Assembly: GCA_034670305.1 (NCBI GenBank)
Contig: JAXMNT010000050.1
Coordinates: 1 to 54,095 of the forward strand
From: Deltaproteobacteria bacterium
Lineage (GTDB): Bacteria > Myxococcota_A > Polyangia > Polyangiales > Houyiibacteriaceae
Length of the DNA stretch: 54,095 bases
Direction of reading: 5' to 3'
In this document: piece by piece, positions 8,481 to 42,540 of the stretch
How positions within the stretch are numbered: position 1 is the first letter of the stretch
Layout of the letters: every line of letters starts with the position of its first letter
Translations under genes and position numbers: made by a program
Notes under the pieces: generated by a model
Seen by the model: the letters and a program-made list of their open reading frames with translations, nothing else
Databases searched by the model: none
What the model was told of the DNA's origin: nothing

Positions 8481-9509
8481 ATGCGCACTCCCATCTTGGT
8501 TGGTTTTCTCGTGGTTGGCCTGATTGCGTGCGGGGACGACGCCCCCACGCCGATCGAAGAGATCCCCGCGGTGTACGCCTCCGCGTTCTGTGAACAGGCG
8601 GACGCTTGCCTCGGGCCGCTCTTCGACGCGCTCTTCCCGGGCGACTGCGACATCGAGCTTCGGAAGCAACTCGAAGAGGGGACCCTTCCCCTGCTCGAAG
8701 CCGGCGTCACCAGCGGGGCCATCGTCTACCACGGCGAAGAAGTCGACGCGTGCCGCGACGAACTCCGCCGCTCGGGCTGTGCGATCTTCGACAACGGCGC
8801 CCTGCCGGCTTGCGAGCGGGTGTTCGAAGGCACGGTCGCCGTCGGCGGCGCGTGTGCGAGCGCGGAAGAATGTGTGGGCGACGGCACCTGCGCCGTCGAC
8901 GCGATGTGTCCGGGCAGCTGCGTGGCGCGCGTCGGCGCGGGGGCGGACTGCGTCTCGGAGTCGGACTGCGCGCGTGGCCTCGTGTGCAACGGCGGCTCGT
9001 GTTCGGATCCGCTCACCCTGGGCCAACCCTGTGAAGGGGACTGCGCAACGGGCCTCGCCTGCATCGAAGGGTTCTGCGCGTCCATCGCCGAGGTACTCGA
9101 CGGCGCGGTTGGCGACCCGTGCGATGGGGAGAACTTCGACCTCTGCGACGACGGCCTGCACTGCGCCGCGGTCGGGCTCGACGGAGATGCCGTGGACTGG
9201 GAGTGCGTGGCCACTTACTCCGCCGGCGGTCAGTGTCAGATCGCGATTCCGGAGGGGTGTCCGAGCGGTCAGCGCTGCGACGCCGATCCGGAGACCACCT
9301 TCATGTTCGACGGAACGTGTGTGCCGCTCCCGGACGAAGGCGAACCGTGCGAGGACGGAATCCTGAGCGCCTCGTGTCAGCCGGGCCTCGTCTGCGTCGG
9401 TACCTGCGTGCGTCAGCAGCACATCGGTGGGGCCTGCGAGACGGACGAGTACTGCTACTCGAGCACGTGCACAGCCGGCTTCTGCGCCGAGCCGACCTGC
9501 GAAGAATAG
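8481..9509 (+). CDS. Cysteine-rich lipoprotein (Dickkopf-like Cys repeats)
   Basis: Lipobox LIAC; repeated G..C.....C..GL.C motifs typical of myxobacterial exported proteins. Confidence 0.8.
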   Translation: MRTPILVGFLVVGLIACGDDAPTPIEEIPAVYASAFCEQADACLGPLFDALFPGDCDIELRKQLEEGTLPLLEAGVTSGAIVYHGEEVDACRDELRRSGCAIFDNGALPACERVFEGTVAVGGACASAEECVGDGTCAVDAMCPGSCVARVGAGADCVSESDCARGLVCNGGSCSDPLTLGQPCEGDCATGLACIEGFCASIAEVLDGAVGDPCDGENFDLCDDGLHCAAVGLDGDAVDWECVATYSAGGQCQIAIPEGCPSGQRCDADPETTFMFDGTCVPLPDEGEPCEDGILSASCQPGLVCVGTCVRQQHIGGACETDEYCYSSTCTAGFCAEPTCEE

Positions 9510-9524
9510 GGCGGCGGCTGAAGC

Positions 9525-9820
9525 GATCGCGGTCGCGGTAGCGGTCGCGGTCGCGGAAGCGGTCGCGGTAGCGGTAGCGGAAGCGGAAGCGGTTGCCGAA
9601 GCCGACACCGAAGCCGACGCCGAAGCCGACACTGAAGCCGAAGCCGAAGCCGAAGCCGACGCCGAAGCCGACGCCGAATCTGACGCCGAAGCCGACGCCG
9701 ATCCCGAAGCCGAAGCCGACACCGAAGCCGACACCGACACCGAAGGCGAAGCCGAAGCCGACGCCGATCCTGAAACTCGGGCACGGGCACGGGCACGGGC
9801 ACGGGCACGGGGGCTTCGGT
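9525..9820. repeat. Compound hexamer microsatellite (GCGGWN)n-(RCCGAM)n-(CGGGCA)5
   Basis: Read directly; lies between convergent stop codons at 9509 and 9839. Confidence 0.95.
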
Positions 9821-9838
9821 TTTCGCCTCAGCCGGGCC

Positions 9839-11005
9839 TCAGCCTCGTTTGAAGGGGGTCTCCTCCATCAGCATCGCGATCTCTCGCTGCACCCCGAACG
9901 CTTCGCGCGGTAGGTAGTCCGCGACCGCGTGGTGCAGCCGGGGATCGCGGACGTGGTGCACGCTGTGCACGCCGACTGGGAGCAGGCCGCGTTGCAGCTT
10001 GTGGTGTCCCTGGGCGCCGGCTTCGAATCGGGTCTGGCCTGCTTCGATCGCGCGCTCGAGCAGGCGGTAGTAGCAGAGCTCGAAATGCAGCATCTCGTGG
10101 TCTTGGTGGCAGCCCCAGTACCGGCCGTACAGGTGTGCGCCCTTCTCGAAGCTGAGGCTTCCGGCGACTGGGCGGTCCCCGTCGTAGGCGAGCACGCCCA
10201 CCGCGCGTGACAACGAAGCGCCTTGTTCGAAGAACGCGTGGGTCAGGTAGGGCTGGGAGCCTTTGCGCATGCAGGTGTCGCGGTAGAATCCGTACAGCGC
10301 CTCCCAGTCGGACTCCGTGAGCGCGTCGGCGGCTTTGGTCTCGATCCGCAGGTTCGATTCCGCCACGACGCGGCGCTCTCGGCGCACCTTCTTGCGCGCC
10401 GAGGATCGAAACCGGGCGAGCAGGTCGTCGAAGTGGGTCTCCTCCTGACGGGTGTAGTGAAACTGGAGGTTCAAGCGCGGCAGGAACGCGCCGGTCTCGA
10501 CCAGCAGATCCCGCTCTTCGAGCGTGAGGTAGAGCAGGTGGATCGAAGACGCGTCCGCTCGGTCGCAGACTTCCAACATGCCCGCGACCAGCGCGTGGGT
10601 GATCGACTTCTTGTCGACGCCGGGCCGAAAGAGCAGCCGGCGGCCGGTGGCGGGCGTCATCGGCGCCATCGACACGAGCTTCGGGTAGTACTCGATGCCG
10701 ATGCGGTGCGCGGCGTTGGCCCACGCGAAGTCGAACGTGTACTCGCCCCACGAGTGCTGTTTCAGATAGAGCGGCAGCGCGCCCACCAAGACGCGTGCGT
10801 CGTCGTCGGTATTGCTGCTGGTCTCACCACTCCACACGAGCAGCGGCACCGGTTGCCAACCGGTTCCCGGACCGACCGAACCACTCTCCTCGAGCGCGGC
10901 GAGAAACGCGTGCTCGGCGAAGGGATCGTCGTCGCCGACCAGCGCATCCCACGCGTCGGCCGGCACCGAGCGCACGCCGTCGGCGATCTCCACCTCCAGA
11001 CTCAT
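9839..11005 (-). CDS. FemAB-like GNAT protein (DUF482 family)
   Basis: [56 protein letters not shown]. Confidence 0.9.
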
Positions 11006-11553
11006 CGGCGCGGCCGCCGCGGGTGGGGGGCCCCCAACGCGTGGCGCGGGATCCAGCGGTCGAGCCAACGTTCGGACCACAGGTGCACGAGGCCGGCGAC
11101 CACGAGCACGGCCCGCGTCGGCCAGCGCGCTTCCCACGACGCGACGCAGACCGCAGCCACCACGACCGCGGGTCGCAAGAGCGTGAGCGGTCCGAAGACG
11201 CTGACCGTCGCCAGCGTGCGCAGTTCGATCCCGCCGAAGAAGTAGGGCAGGAAGGCCGTCACGACGACCACCGCGTACACACCCACCACGCAGGCGAGCC
11301 GAACGCCGGCCTGCTGCATGTCCGCGTAGAGCACGCCTGGTTCTGCGGCAGCGAGCAGCACCGCGCCAGCGAGTCCCGCGAGCAGCGCGACCACCACCCA
11401 CCCTTGGGCGATGCCTCCCCGCACGGCCCGCACATAGAACCGCCCTTTGAAGATGCGCCCGTCGCGGCCGGCGGCGGCGCGGTACCCCGCGAAGCCGTGG
11501 TCCAAGAGCGACAGTCCGATGAGCGCGGCCGGCAGCGCGTCGAGCGCGGTCAT
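11002..11553 (-). CDS. Hypothetical 4-5 TM membrane protein
   Basis: Hydrophobic segments; ATGA overlaps with both neighbours; FAGYRAAAGRDGRIFK motif. Confidence 0.7.
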   Translation of the reverse strand: MTALDALPAALIGLSLLDHGFAGYRAAAGRDGRIFKGRFYVRAVRGGIAQGWVVVALLAGLAGAVLLAAAEPGVLYADMQQAGVRLACVVGVYAVVVVTAFLPYFFGGIELRTLATVSVFGPLTLLRPAVVVAAVCVASWEARWPTRAVLVVAGLVHLWSERWLDRWIPRHALGAPHPRRPRR

Positions 11554-12464
11554 GGCGTCATGTGTCGGAGCAGACGCGCGCTGCGACCGAGCGCTTCGGT
11601 CCACGCGCCAAAGGTTCCGCGGCGGATCCCGACCACGGGGCGGAGCGTGCGGGTGATTGGGAGGATCTTCGACCCCACGCGGAACACGCCCACCCGGAAG
11701 TCGTCGTGGCGGGCGGCGTCGATCAACGTGTCGGTCGTATGCGCGCGCAGCGCGGAGCGCACGCCGTCGTTCTGGGCCAGGGGTTCGCGCATGCGCGCGC
11801 GGTGAAAGAGCCAAGCGCCGAGCGGTGCCAACCAGCTCGGCTCCACGTCGAAGTGGAAGAAGGCTTCGGTGTGCGGGCCCTCGGTCTGCCCGCGGAAGAA
11901 CGCGCGCAGCCCCTCGTCGCGGAAGTGGTGCAAGACCCCCGTGGACAGGTAGATGTGCGCCGGCTCCGCGAGCGCGAACGCGTTGGCGACCCGGAACTGG
12001 CAGTCGAGGGACTCCACCGTCCGCAGTCGGTTCGCCTCGTCGACGAGCGCGCGGTTGAAGTCGCACCCGATGAGTTCGACGTCCGGCCCGAAGCTCCCTT
12101 TCGCCGCGAACCAGCGCATCACGTAGCCGAGACCGCAGCCGACATCGACGACCCGCACCGGCGAGACGCCGCGGACCTGGAGCAACTTCACCGTGGGCCG
12201 CAGCAACTCCAGGATGCGCTGCGGTTGCTGGAACTCCTCGTTGAGCCGTTGCAACTCGCGGTGGGCCCGCAGCAGAAGCTCATCGACTTCACGGGGGTTG
12301 AAGTGTCCCTCTTCGTCATGCGGGATCGCGCGGAGCACCCGCGCGGCCTTCCGCTGGCCATGCCGCATCAACGCGCCGAGGGCGTCGTCGCGAGGCACCG
12401 GCTGGCGTTCGAGCGACTCGAGATCGTAGGCGACGACCACGTCGCTGATCTCCGGGACATCCAT
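11550..12464 (-). CDS. Class I SAM-dependent methyltransferase
   Basis: VVDVGCGLG motif I, LIGCD motif and STGVLHHF. Confidence 0.85.
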   Translation of the reverse strand: MDVPEISDVVVAYDLESLERQPVPRDDALGALMRHGQRKAARVLRAIPHDEEGHFNPREVDELLLRAHRELQRLNEEFQQPQRILELLRPTVKLLQVRGVSPVRVVDVGCGLGYVMRWFAAKGSFGPDVELIGCDFNRALVDEANRLRTVESLDCQFRVANAFALAEPAHIYLSTGVLHHFRDEGLRAFFRGQTEGPHTEAFFHFDVEPSWLAPLGAWLFHRARMREPLAQNDGVRSALRAHTTDTLIDAARHDDFRVGVFRVGSKILPITRTLRPVVGIRRGTFGAWTEALGRSARLLRHMTP

Positions 12465-16766: not shown

Positions 16767-16770
16767 CCAA

Positions 16771-17045
16771 GCGGCAGCGGACGCGGAAGCGGAAGCGGGC
16801 GCGGAAGCGGAAGCGGAAGCGGAAGCGGAAGCGGAAGCGGAAGCGGAAGCGGAAGCCGTCGCCGAAGCCGAAGCCGACTCCGACGCCGACGCCGACGCCG
16901 ACGCCGAATCCGAATCCGAAGCCGAAGCCGACGCCGAATCCGAAGCCGAAGCCGTCGCCGACTCCGAAGCCGACGCCGACGCCGAAGCCGAAGCCGAAGC
17001 CGACGCCGAATCCGACTCCGACTCCGACTCCGACTCCGATTCCGT
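16771..17045. repeat. Compound hexamer microsatellite (GCGGAA)n-(KCCGAM)n
   Basis: Fills almost the whole gap between the convergent recR and RNAP-like genes. Confidence 0.95.
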
Positions 17046-17049
17046 CTGC

Positions 17050-19926
17050 TCAGTCGATGTCGTCGAGGTCGTCGAAGTCGTGGGACTCGACTTCTGCGGG
17101 CGCGCTCGGAGCCGGCGCTTGGGTCCGGACCGGCGTGACCGGCGCTGTGGGGGCCGGAGGTGGCGCGTCGAGGCGCATGCCCAGAGAGAGGCCGAGTTCG
17201 CTCAGGATCTCCTTCAGCTCCTTCAAAGTCTCGCGGCCCGCGTCTCTCATCTTGAGCACGTCGACGTCGGACTTCTGGACGAGCTGCCGCAACGTCACGA
17301 CGCCCATGTTCTGGAGCAGGTTCGCGGTGCGGACCGACAACTCGAGTTCGTCCACGCGCCGTTCCAGATACGGATGGGTTGGGGGCGGCTCGTCGACGGC
17401 CGACTTGGGGATCGGGTCGTTCCACGAGGACGCGCCCCTGGCGTCGCCTTCGGGCGCGGGACCGCTTCGCAGGCCGAGCAGGCGCCGACTGCGGAGGTCT
17501 GTGAGCGGATCGACGCGCTGGTGGAGGGCGGCGCCCATGACAACGGCGGCGAACTCCGTGGGCGATGCGTCGATCGCTGCCGCCAGCCAATGCGCCTTGG
17601 CGTGCGCGCCGCCAACCGAGCCCGCGCCTGCCTCGGAGTGAAGCACCCGTAGCCCCCGGACCTCGTCGATCGCTCGGGCCGAGAGCGGCACGTGGACCGC
17701 GACCGATTCGCCGGCCGCCAGCTGGAGCGTGTCGATGAGCGAGGGCGCGAGCCCCACCGCGAACCCGTCCCAGAGTTCCACTCGGAGTCCGAGCGCGCTG
17801 GGTCCGCTGGCGCCGGGTTTGGTGACGAGCAGCACAGGGTGGTCCCGCATGCCCGACTCGGCGATGGCCTCCAGGAGGTCGCCGCCTTTCTGGACCATGA
17901 CTTTGGCCGACTTGATCGTCGTCACGTAGCCAGCCGCCTCGAGCCGGCCGTAGATCATGGGTTTGAAGAGTTCGGTCGCCAGACTGCGGGGGAGCCGGAC
18001 GCAGTCTTCTGAGAGACGAGGGACCGGCACCACCACGGCCGCGCCCGAGTAGTCCACCCGCTTGCCCCGCTCAGCCATCTGCATGTGGCTGTGTGTGAGG
18101 TCGGCGATGGGGCGCAGCCTCCGCTTCTCCGGTTCGCCCCGGCTGTCGTCGAAACCGAGCACCGTCCCCCCGCGCGCGCCGTTGTCCACGAGCGCCCCGA
18201 GTGCTCCTTGAAGGTGTCCGACTTCGCTGCGCAGGATGGGAAACGGCGCATTCAGCTCGAGCAAGCGTTTCATCCGGTTGCTTCGGTTGATGAAGCGCCG
18301 GTAGAGGTCGTTCAGGTCCGAAGTCGCGTAGCGCCCGCCGACCAGGGGCACGATCGGCCGCAGATCCGGCGGAAGCACTGGCCAGGTTTCGTAGAAGACG
18401 TGATCGATCAGCGGCCGGTCGTCGGTGCGGGTGCGGCGCACTTCGTCGCGAAGGGCGTAGACGCCGCCCGACGCCAGATCCTCGGCAGGCGAGAGCGCGT
18501 AGGTGAGGTGCTCGCGCACGATGCGCGCGACCGTCTTCTCGTCGGTGCCGAGCCATTCGGCGAGCGGACCGTAGCCCCACGGGTGCAGGACGGGGACCGG
18601 CAGATCGACGTGTCCGAACCGCTCGCGCCGCACCTTGCTCGCGATGACTTCGACCCCGCACTTCTCGCAGACCACCCCGCGGTGTTTCATGCGCTTGTAC
18701 TTGCCGCAGACACACTCGTAGTCGGCGATGGGCCCGAAGATGCGCGCGCAGAAGAGCCCGCCGGCCTCCGGCTTGTGCGTCCGGTAGTTCAGCGTCTCTG
18801 GCTTCTGCACCTCGCCGTGCGAGCGGGCCCGGATCTGGGCGTCGCTCGAGAGGGTGAGCAGCATCTGGGTGAGTGTGTCGGTGCTCTGCGGTTTCTCGAA
18901 GAACGAGAAGATGTCGCGCTTCTTCTCCGGTGCCGGCGAGGCCGTGGGCGAGATCCCGGTCGTCACCTCGAAGCCCAGCCCGATGAGTTCCCGCTTCAGC
19001 ACGTGGGTGAGCTCGGGAATGCCCGCGTCGAAGGTCGTCTGCTGTTTGACCAGCCCCTCGTACGCGCGGGTTCGGCCGGACACGTCGTCCGTCTTGATCG
19101 TGAGCAGCTCGTGGAGCGTCTGCCACGCGCCGGCGGACTCGAGCAACGCGGCGTGGGCGCCGGTGAAGAGCTGGCCGCCAAACTGCGCTTTGCCGCCGAG
19201 CGGTTGCTGGGTGACGATCGAGTAGGGCCCGATGCCCCGCGCGTGCAGAACGGCTTCCGCGCACTGGATCTTCTGCACCTCGAAGGTGCCGGCCGGGCCC
19301 GACCAGACCATCGCTGCGCCGGCGGGAAGGTCCTCGCTGATCTCGGAGACCACCGCTCGTTCGCCGCCAAGAGTCAGCACATCACCGACCGCCAGCGCGC
19401 GGTGGTCGGTGACGTCGACCTCCACCCGGATCGACTTCTCGCCCACCTCTCGCACGGCTCGGGTCACGGTGCCTTTCGCGTCCGGCGGGCAAGCCACCGA
19501 GGCGTCGCGCACGTCGCCCGCCATCTCTCCGAAGATGGCGCGCAGCAGCTTCTCTTCTTGCGACAGCAGGGTGCTCGCCTTGTCCTGCACCCGGCCGATC
19601 AGGATGGTGCCGGGCACGACGACCGAGCCGGATTTGGCCACGCCGTGTTCGTCCAGGTGGGCCAGCACCGCGGCGCCCTTGTTCGGGATGTCGAAGGTGA
19701 AGGACTCGCGCGCGTCTTTGGCGGTGGAGACCTCCGCTGTGAACGTCTGTACGTGGGTCGAGGCCAGGGCCGCCGCGGCGCTCGGGCGGATGCGCACGGA
19801 GGCCAGGGCGGGCAGTGCGGAGGCCAGGGCGGGCCGGGCGGAAGGCAGGGCGGAGGGGTCCGACGCGACCTGCAGGGAGCAGGCGCGTTCGCCGGAGGCG
19901 AGGGTCAGGGGGCCGGTCTCGAGCAT
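17050..19926 (-). CDS. Single-chain RpoB/RpoC/RpoA-CTD mosaic lacking the RNAP active site (putative RNA polymerase mimic)
   Basis: In order: RpoB flap (DIPN...[11 protein letters not shown]), RpoB C-terminus ([25 protein letters not shown]), RpoC N-terminus ([62 protein letters not shown]), an RpoC C-terminal-like segment, and alpha-CTD ([12 protein letters not shown]). No NADFDGD. Confidence 0.93.
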
Positions 19927-20060
19927 ATGAGCAGAACCTACTACGGGGCCTCCTCCCGAAGTCACCCCTCCGCACGCCACAGCGCCCGTGGGAGGGAGGC
20001 TTGTGCGGGGGCGTGCGCCACTTCTTTAACATCCGCGGTCGTTGTCTCTACCGTCGCGTC

Positions 20061-22767: not shown

Positions 22768-24308
<1,541 letters not shown>

Positions 24309-42356: not shown

Positions 42357-42426
42357 GGATCCAGTGTCCCACGGGTTGTCGGCTTCCGCTGCGCCTCCAG
42401 TTTCGGCCGGCAGCAGCAGCGGCACA

Positions 42427-42540
42427 TCGGCATCGGCAGCGGCAGCGGCAGCGGCAGCGGCAGCGGCATCGGCAGCGGCAGCGGCAGCGGCAGCGGCAGC
42501 GGCAGCGGCTTCGGCTTCGGCTTCGGCCTCGAGTTCGGCT
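42427..42540. repeat. Hexamer microsatellite (CGGCAK)n-(TCGGCT)n
   Basis: Read directly, just downstream of the DUF3570 gene stop. Confidence 0.93.

Follow-up and report, generated by a model that had tools for sequence, protein, structure and literature searches.

Few enzymes have been studied as much as bacterial RNA polymerase, whose subunits are regarded as indivisible and as present in single copy. In Helicobacter/Wolinella and in Wolbachia the beta and beta' subunits are fused, and the resulting proteins, about 2840-2890 amino acids (aa) long, are complete and active enzymes. Single-chain polymerases of the YonO type keep the metal-binding aspartate triad and synthesise RNA. The known anti-sigma factors, such as Rsd, FlgM and AsiA, are small and share no kinship with polymerase, and 6S RNA acts as a mimic of promoter DNA. 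Young, Gruber, Gross and co-workers are said to have found, in 2001 and 2004, that N-terminal fragments of beta' suffice, together with sigma-70, for the recognition and melting of the -10 strand. The second rpoB of actinomycetes such as Nonomuraea gives, according to an excerpt of PMC5431353, full-length subunits assembling into an active enzyme. The gene described here was found in a 54,095-nucleotide stretch of DNA, referred to below as the window, which corresponds to contig JAXMNT010000050.1 of the Deltaproteobacteria bacterium assembly GCA_034670305.1. It encodes a protein of 958 aa in which pieces of RpoB, RpoC and the alpha subunit are joined in one chain. Catalytic residues are substituted in this protein, and surfaces at which polymerase binds its factors are retained; we tentatively regard it as a mimic of the core enzyme that binds sigma.

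Organization of the fused protein

Break points were set by BLASTP comparison of the 958-aa protein with the RpoB, RpoC and RpoA of the host (Table 1). Pfam domains are found in the order RNA_pol_Rpb2_6 (1e-21), Rpb2_7 (below cut-off), Rpb1_1 (1.5e-33), a weak Rpb1_2 and RNA_pol_A_CTD (7e-14). A preliminary description of the window had listed, from N- to C-terminus, the RpoB flap, the RpoB C-terminus, the RpoC N-terminus, the C-terminal domain of the alpha subunit (alpha-CTD) and an acidic tail. Pfam and BLASTP agree with this order, and the motif coordinates given there, among others for the zinc finger, the clamp helices and the alpha-CTD, all translate correctly. Past the flap, residues 163-321 match host RpoB ~1199-1359 at 41% identity, and residues 223-321 correspond to E. 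coli beta 1239-1337. In the beta'-like half, residues 512-759 match host RpoC 238-484, and residues 513-761 correspond to E. coli beta' 240-485.

The pieces kept appear to include those that form the clamp, which is built of the beta' N-terminus, a beta' C-terminal segment and the beta C-terminus, as stated in an excerpt of PMC12000874 and as already indicated in the preliminary description. A segment resembling the RpoC C-terminus had also been proposed, and a motif common to the family is indeed found there (residues 776-822). Its kinship to RpoC is suggestive: the best profile alignment across host RpoC falls at 1310-1351 of 1386, with an E value of 0.002 and a probability of 14%, and the motif may plausibly be likened to the C-terminal clamp segment.

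Residues 840-920 are 51% identical to host RpoA 242-322, and the PF03118 match, which exceeds the gathering score, covers residues 850-910. The host stretch KTKNFGRKSL and the motif SVRxAN hold residues that we take, from E. coli, to contact DNA. The former is altered in the 958-aa protein, and the arginine of the latter is kept. KTKNFGRKSL is intact in the family member P0003, and the DNA-contact stretch varies among the others. Residues 855-921 also weakly match positions ~800-866 of PglW, a BREX kinase, in PADLOC and NCBIfam (E 7.7e-5 and 0.0075), which suggests that PglW contains an alpha-CTD-like helix-hairpin-helix module.

Loss of the catalytic apparatus and predicted fold

Both double-psi barrels are present in degenerate form, with the catalytic residues substituted. 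NADFDGD is replaced by L-AAGES; host NADFDGDQMAVHVPLS aligns at this place in BLASTP, and the metal-binding loop is not kept. Host GDKMAGRHGNKG is similarly replaced by other residues in the degenerate barrel, and the beta lysine loop GDKxxxRHGNKG is not conserved. The Pfam scan of the 958-aa protein returned no Rpb1_3, Rpb1_4 or Rpb1_5, the domains of bridge helix, trigger loop, jaw and funnel, and no Rpb2_1/2/3, which correspond to lobes, protrusion and fork; Rpb2_6, partial, and Rpb2_7 are the sole beta matches. The alignment to RpoC ends at RpoC residue 484. The deletion of parts of the catalytic core, announced in the preliminary description, is borne out by these data.

Profile scores tell the same. 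The protein scores 322.7 bits with TIGR02386 (catalytic beta'), below the cut-off of 963.5, and 208.6 bits with TIGR02013 (beta), below the cut-off of 801. The top-scoring NCBIfam models are those of the fused beta/beta' subunits, NF007172 (462 against a cut-off of 5372 bits) and NF011417 (388 against 4632). Of the tests that define a catalytic beta, a catalytic beta' and a full-length fusion, by Pfam domains, BLASTP and these models, none is passed by the protein, which passes that of the alpha-CTD alone.

The protein is nevertheless predicted to fold. AlphaFold2, run with a 61-sequence alignment of the family, gave a compact model with a mean predicted local distance difference test (pLDDT) of 88.4 and a predicted template modelling score (pTM) of 0.88, which answers with a confident fold the structure prediction suggested in the preliminary description. 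Low confidence is limited to residues 30-40, the flap tip, the linker between the two halves, residues 769-772 and residues 926-958. The top Foldseek matches of the model are beta' chains of solved bacterial RNA polymerases (E ~1e-33, ~470-500 columns). The preliminary term of a clamp-flap-dock half-polymerase is apt insofar as the protein is apparently folded and non-catalytic; it falls short in that clamp, flap and dock are accompanied by the degenerate barrels. The protein would rather fold as a clamp, RNA-exit-channel and two-barrel core, derived from an rpoB-rpoC pair with the addition of an alpha-CTD.

A family sharing the same break points

The search for orthologues proposed in the preliminary description, carried out on 1.84 billion representative proteins and by word-index search, yielded 65 diverged proteins with identical break points, contrary to one of the refuting outcomes named there. 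They are found among 71 proteins shorter than 1150 aa and lacking NADFDGD; the 65 carry both the beta and beta' pieces, corresponding to RpoB ~836-940 and 1260-1361, and to RpoC from residue 2-20 to ~480-510. NADFDGD is found in 0 of the 65. The set being defined by the absence of this motif, 15 short proteins bearing NADFDGD were checked separately. All 15 are ordinary RpoC fragments (54-79% identity), one of which is preceded by a true RpoB C-terminus (77%).

Family members are 31-51% identical to one another, and 53 columns of their alignment are invariant or at least 90% conserved. A tree of the beta'-like part was made from 395 columns with 61 sequences of the family and 63 of RpoC; the former group together in a single clade (support 1.0). 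The mean pairwise distance is 2.29 within the family versus 0.15 within RpoC, a difference of about 15 times to be read with the narrow spread of an RpoC sample made of the nearest hits.

The C-terminal end is variable. The alpha-CTD and the acidic tail, both noted at first, do occur in the 958-aa protein; neither is constant in the family, since an alpha-CTD is found in 17 of 65 members (two copies in P0122), and a terminal acidic tail that contains Phe, Tyr or Leu in 5 of 65. Most of the remaining members end a few residues past the ..LLGR.. motif. P0005, P0121, P0136, P0143 and P0162 retain an extra Cys-rich piece resembling the second Cys cluster of beta' and the start of region G, and P0142 (1647 aa) features a complete Rpb2_6 domain, yet a dead catalytic loop. 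An N-terminal extension of 440-500 aa, unmatched in Pfam, is found in both P0247 (1269 aa) and P0158 (1105 aa). In the complete 9.1-Mb genome of a relative (G012) two genes are found in place of one, at 10698-11621 and 8836-10701 of the minus strand (L020, G012:C1). They encode a 307-aa beta-like protein and a 622-aa beta'-like protein with alpha-CTD and acidic tail, and overlap at a GTGA stop/start. Their junction falls at the position of the linker (residues 327-336) of the 958-aa protein, and their order mirrors that of rpoB-rpoC. Judging from the occurrence of split (G012), fused and variously less reduced forms, the family descends from an rpoB-rpoC pair.

The loss of catalytic residues, and the scrambled C-terminus of P0004, which looks frameshifted, might lead one to see in the gene a decaying duplicate or an assembly artefact without function. 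This is contradicted by the intact frame, by the same junctions in 65 diverged proteins, by the conserved columns and by the confident fold, and appears hardly credible. Support for the junctions, questioned in the preliminary description, is also at hand: in four of four sequencing runs, which all stem from a single study and are possibly the source samples, one 5862-base per-run contig spans 17010-20500, and thus the whole gene, with zero differences and even depth.

Residues retained and lost

To weigh what has been kept, 36 real RpoB C-terminal and 63 real RpoC N-terminal parts were mapped onto the family alignment. Retention is the share of 61 members keeping the residue at the 563 positions that are at least 90% conserved in the real subunits; it was used instead of dN/dS because synonymous sites are saturated at 31-51% identity. 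The mean retention in the family is 0.43. Values above the mean are those of the lid (0.69), the beta stretch ARSIGPYS..GGQ (0.69), the clamp helices (0.59), the zinc finger (0.54), the beta' N-terminus (0.54) and the flap tip (0.48). Below the mean are NRAPTLHR..EP (0.12), NADFDGD (0.15), the shortened stretch 451-511 (0.18), the beta switch-3-like stretch (0.22), the rudder (0.32) and the beta lysine loop (0.32). The 958-aa protein (P0001 in the alignment) keeps 18 of 20 residues of the flap tip, 27 of 30 of the zinc finger, 33 of 46 of the clamp helices and 15 of 20 of the lid. It keeps 2 of 9 in the catalytic loop, 2 of 17 in NRAPTLHR and 2 of 14 in the switch-3-like stretch. By this measure, the elements that touch DNA, hybrid and substrate are lost, and the factor-docking shell is preserved.

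The same figures bear on the proposal, made in the preliminary description, that the protein soaks up switch-region antibiotics. Such a sponge would take up antibiotics of myxobacteria that bind the switch region or the clamp of RNA polymerase, for self-resistance or for protection from competitors. Parts that build the switch region are physically there, namely KRVDYSG of beta', the C-terminus of beta and the motif likened to the beta' C-terminus, and the closest relatives carry the names Sandaracinus, Polyangiaceae and Myxococcales. However, the switch-3-like stretch and the basic residues preceding KRVDYSG, which we take to belong to the lining of the drug pocket, are among the least conserved, and beta' switch 2 has a retention of 0.40, compared with 0.43 overall. 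No biosynthetic cluster adjoins the gene at the four loci examined. An antibiotic sponge is accordingly disfavoured, and we hold it to be very improbable.

Modelled docking of sigma factors

The host genome has 39 genes of the sigma-70 family. Residues 56-822 of the protein, with the family alignment, were modelled in complex with regions 2-4 of host RpoD (233 residues, no alignment). The complex score was 0.73 in the median run, versus 0.00 for the best of three controls; of 80 solved complexes 58 attain the mark set for this score, as do 2 of 110 mismatched pairs. The runs share at least 85% of the contacts, and the pLDDT of the partner is at least 77. The modelled contacts are those of a holoenzyme: the clamp helices face sigma region 2, the lid region faces the sigma linker, the zipper and the zinc finger take part, and the flap tip faces region 4. 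At the 73 conserved positions involved in modelled contacts the 958-aa protein keeps the real residue in 84% of cases, versus 49% elsewhere. Family-wide the values are 0.61 and 0.40, and 0 of 10000 random sets of positions equal the former.

The excerpt of PMC12000874 reports that in bacterial polymerase the beta' clamp helices are the binding site of sigma region 2, and the flap tip helix that of region 4.2. The same source relates that binding to the clamp helices turns on the binding of the -10 strand by sigma, and that binding to the flap tip places region 4 for the -35 element. The reading we favour, with a probability of roughly 0.4, is that of a catalytically dead, single-chain mimic of the core polymerase which would bind one or more sigma factors of the cell, and would either sequester sigma or sit with it on promoters as an inert pseudo-holoenzyme. 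The clamp helices would hold region 2 and the flap tip region 4, and lid and zinc finger would flank the path of regions 3.2/4. In one mode sigma would be withdrawn from the core polymerase, resulting in an anti-sigma action by core mimicry. In the other, protein and sigma would form an inert pseudo-holoenzyme seated on promoters, with the alpha-CTD, where present, adding contacts. An optional alpha-CTD suits the latter mode, and its DNA-contact residues are not uniformly kept. We infer the binding of sigma in the cell, the identity of the sigma factor bound and the effect on transcription. Among the roles put forward in the preliminary description, titration of sigma fits best, in view of the retained docking surfaces and of the RpoD model, which passes its controls; the other roles are dealt with where their evidence is given.

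A more specific version is that of a pseudo-core, which would be a regulator of transcription of a new kind. Together with sigma, whose regions 2 and 4 would be held at the spacing they have in the holoenzyme, the protein would recognise and occupy promoters without transcribing, and members with an alpha-CTD would also contact UP elements or activators. We consider this version doubtful. If true, the pseudo-core would play, as a protein and in reverse, the part of 6S RNA, and sigma competition could in this way be buffered, or promoters bookmarked, in bacteria that have sigma factors by the dozen.

Several points weigh against the binding of sigma. The complex score may reflect memory of the many solved holoenzymes, and shows a likeness of docking surfaces only. 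The excess at contact positions could partly stem from buried or structurally important residues, and the real subunits used for comparison come from related lineages, which inflates the apparent invariance. NusG uses the clamp helices and NusA the flap tip, so that the retention of these surfaces is not specific to sigma. Family-wide retention of the flap tip barely exceeds the mean, and the zinc finger is absent in about one quarter of the members (occupancy 0.77). The beta protrusion, which holds sigma region 3 according to the excerpt of PMC12000874, is absent in the 958-aa protein. No sigma or anti-sigma gene adjoins the family gene at the four loci examined.

The surfaces shared with elongation factors lead to an alternative, in which the protein, by displaying the RNA exit channel (flap tip, zinc finger and dock), the clamp helices and in some members an alpha-CTD, would bind NusA and/or NusG-family factors, or ligands resembling nascent RNA, away from the transcribing polymerase. 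The N-terminal domain of NusA binds the flap tip and the alpha-CTD, and NusG binds the clamp helices. Flap tip, clamp helices, zinc finger and dock are all retained, and an alpha-CTD is found in 17 of the 65 members. The alpha-CTD is however optional in the family, and the beta gate loop/lobe, which NusG also uses, is absent from the 958-aa protein. A sink for elongation factors seems unlikely.

Distribution of the family

Named members of the closest protein cluster come from Sandaracinus, Polyangiaceae and Myxococcales metagenome-assembled genomes; most others are single metagenome proteins. NCBI labels the nearest relative 'alpha C-terminal domain-containing protein' or 'hypothetical protein'. 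The family is rare among species-representative genomes: a full paralogue is found in 4 of 61 close relatives, the genome G000 being counted. The family-specific C-terminal module is found in at least 3 of 401 genomes of a phylum sample, in which scoring covered 11 candidates per genome out of as many as 164. A whole-family profile run on the 401 genomes was set aside: its matches, two candidates per genome being scored, were swamped by genuine rpoB-rpoC read through stops, and no inference on distribution is drawn from them. In collections of phages and plasmids no member of the family was found; the matches are genuine or misfiled rpoBC genes and a beta'-like gene of a jumbo phage (29% identity). 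In the ESM Atlas no cluster of the family was found (best score 0.82), true beta and beta' clusters only. Two clusters of the Atlas (61 and 53 members) hold apparently full-length beta' subunits of ~1480 aa, all with PF03118, and fusions of beta' and alpha-CTD occur therefore outside the family.

Flanking genes differ at all four loci compared (G000, G012, G004, G006), and none is conserved. At one locus a response regulator dependent on sigma-54 (Sigma54_activat, E 3e-70; L021, G004:C56, 7579-8937, plus strand) is convergent to the family gene and lies ~100 bases from its end. It is missing at the other three loci, and we regard the association as due to chance.

Fast evolution (2.29 versus 0.15 in the tree) and patchy occurrence would suit a decoy, an expendable copy that would soak up or sense the proteins with which phages or competitors attack polymerase at its flap, beta' N-terminus, clamp or alpha-CTD. 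Matches in the PDB include isolated flap domains bound by phage proteins (3tbi, 3woe). The protein lacks however any effector domain, and the gene is not in the context of a defence island, its neighbours being housekeeping or metabolic genes that vary from genome to genome. PADLOC-DB yields nothing beyond the weak alpha-CTD-like match to PglW, 63 residues long (E 7.7e-5), and the searches of phages and plasmids yielded no copy. Such a decoy is in our opinion rather improbable.

The host also has a smaller paralogue derived from RpoC, encoded at C12:91742-92602, plus strand (L007:1339-2196). The 286-aa protein matches Pfam Rpb1_1 only, and is 35% identical to the 958-aa protein and 36% to RpoC 24-356. 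The four cysteines of the zinc finger are missing, lid and clamp helices are kept, and the chain ends in an acidic ...PDDFDFD tail similar to that of the 958-aa protein. Small frames similar to this beta' N-terminal paralogue are also found in G012, G030 and G033.

Gene structure and flanking DNA

The host genome measures 7.9 Mb in 105 contigs, is 96% complete and has a GC content of 68%. Normal rpoB (1376 aa) and rpoC (1386 aa) genes are adjacent on contig C47, and rpoA is on C40. The fusion gene is one uninterrupted frame of 958 codons from ATG, plus stop, and frame analysis upholds the single intact reading frame initially reported. An in-frame GTG at 19980, 54 bases upstream, could serve as start and would extend the protein by 18 aa; the ATG is favoured because the family alignment starts there. 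A scan for promoters upstream found no sigma-70-type site, a result uninformative at 68% GC. Segments of the gene are listed in Table 1.

Table 1. Segments of the 958-aa protein and their coordinates in the window
Feature	Residues	Coordinates	Strand	Basis and remarks
Whole coding sequence	1-958	17050..19926	-	Frame analysis; GC content at third codon positions (GC3) 0.87, similar to adjacent genes
N-terminal lead	1-54	19765..19926	-	No RpoB counterpart (BLASTP); partly structured, pLDDT 97 at residues 11-20, low at 30-40
RpoB flap	55-157	19456..19764	-	BLASTP, Pfam; host RpoB 836-938, 49% identity
Flap tip	121-141	19504-19566	-	Within the RpoB flap
Reduced RpoB barrel and RpoB C-terminal clamp part	158-326	18949..19455	-	Lysine loop replaced
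Linker joining the beta-like and beta'-like halves	327-336	18919..18948	-	pLDDT low in blocks 331-350
RpoC N-terminus	337-456	18559..18918	-	BLASTP; host RpoC 2-121
Zinc finger	Cys405/407/420/423	18658-18714	-	Within the RpoC N-terminus
55-aa substitute for host RpoC 122-237	457-511	18394..18558	-	BLASTP; retention 0.18
Lid and clamp helices	512-582	18181..18393	-	Retention 0.69 / 0.59; modelled contacts with sigma region 2
Rudder remnant, KRVDYSG, dock, beta' barrel	583-759	17650..18180	-	BLASTP; NRAPTLHR lost, retention 0.12
Dead catalytic loop	734-743	17698-17727	-	NADFDGD replaced; retention 0.15
Family-wide C-terminal motif GWL..AAL.GE.DP..R..LGR	776-822	17461..17601	-	pLDDT 94-97
alpha-CTD	850-920	17167..17379	-	PF03118, 51.7 bits against a cut-off of 23.8
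Pro/Ala-rich linker and acidic tail	921-958	17053..17166	-	pLDDT <50 for 926-958

The gene is flanked by genes for a methyltransferase and a Ser/Thr kinase, by dnaX, ybaB and recR, which are convergent, and by a divergent gene for an MscS-type channel. Genes for a redoxin-like protein, a VKOR protein, a Rieske oxygenase and an Omp85 protein are also found. No ribosomal, polymerase, sigma, defence or biosynthetic genes are located near the gene in the window, in agreement with the first remark that neither rpoBC nor ribosomal-protein genes are close by.

Arrays of 6-base tandem repeats occur in the window at 2124-2299, 9522-9811, 16769-17039, 22832-23015 and 42408-42509. Their units are for example GAAGCC, CGGCTT and CGGGCA, repeated up to 38 times. 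One array occupies the gap between the stop codons of recR and of the fusion gene, and another codes for the Ala/Glu repeat tail of the VKOR-like protein. The per-run contigs end at the 16800-17010 array, where word depth is hundreds of times that of the flanks.

Significance

A full-text search of the literature, with subscription journals and supplements outside its coverage, returned no description of such a protein. We consider that the family is so far undescribed and that its likely mode of action has no precedent. In this family the enzyme is reduced to its factor-docking shell: pieces of beta, beta' and sometimes alpha are carried on one chain, and catalysis is discarded. If the function suggested by this anatomy is true, a new principle of transcription control would emerge, in which the core enzyme itself is mimicked. 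Should the partner prove to be a phage protein or a Nus factor, structural and biochemical studies would still have in the family a minimal scaffold, made by nature, of clamp, flap and exit channel. The family also puts on view the stepwise reduction of a multisubunit polymerase, with a two-gene form, a fused form, forms with the extra piece resembling the Cys cluster and region G of beta', and a form of 1647 aa in which beta domain 6 is complete.

Comparison with known systems

The fused beta::beta' subunits of Helicobacter/Wolinella and Wolbachia (NF007172, NF011417) resemble the 958-aa protein in having the beta' N-terminus follow the beta C-terminus on a single chain. The latter protein, however, has lost about two thirds of both subunits and carries other residues in place of the catalytic motifs. 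YonO of the SPbeta prophage, the polymerases of crAss-like phages and the RNA-dependent RNA polymerases of the QDE-1 type are likewise single chains that feature both double-psi barrels and lack many accessory domains. The family differs from these in that no Asp triad is found in the loops listed and that none of the 65 members has NADFDGD; the 958-aa protein, moreover, retains the bacterial flap, clamp helices and zinc finger, with 40-60% identity to the host subunits.

The likeness to the anti-sigma factors Rsd, FlgM and AsiA and to 6S RNA would be one of proposed outcome only, the availability of sigma or of holoenzyme being controlled by sequestration through mimicry. In contrast to all of them, the 958-aa protein would mimic the core enzyme itself. 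The second rpoB of actinomycetes (Nonomuraea), as presented in the excerpt of PMC5431353, is comparable as an extra subunit paralogue beside the housekeeping gene. Engineered beta' fragments illustrate that a clamp-helix piece can hold sigma region 2 and activate its binding to DNA, a principle found also in the excerpt of PMC12000874. Unlike these fragments, the family is encoded by a natural, conserved gene, and combines the clamp helices with the flap, with both barrels and sometimes with an alpha-CTD.

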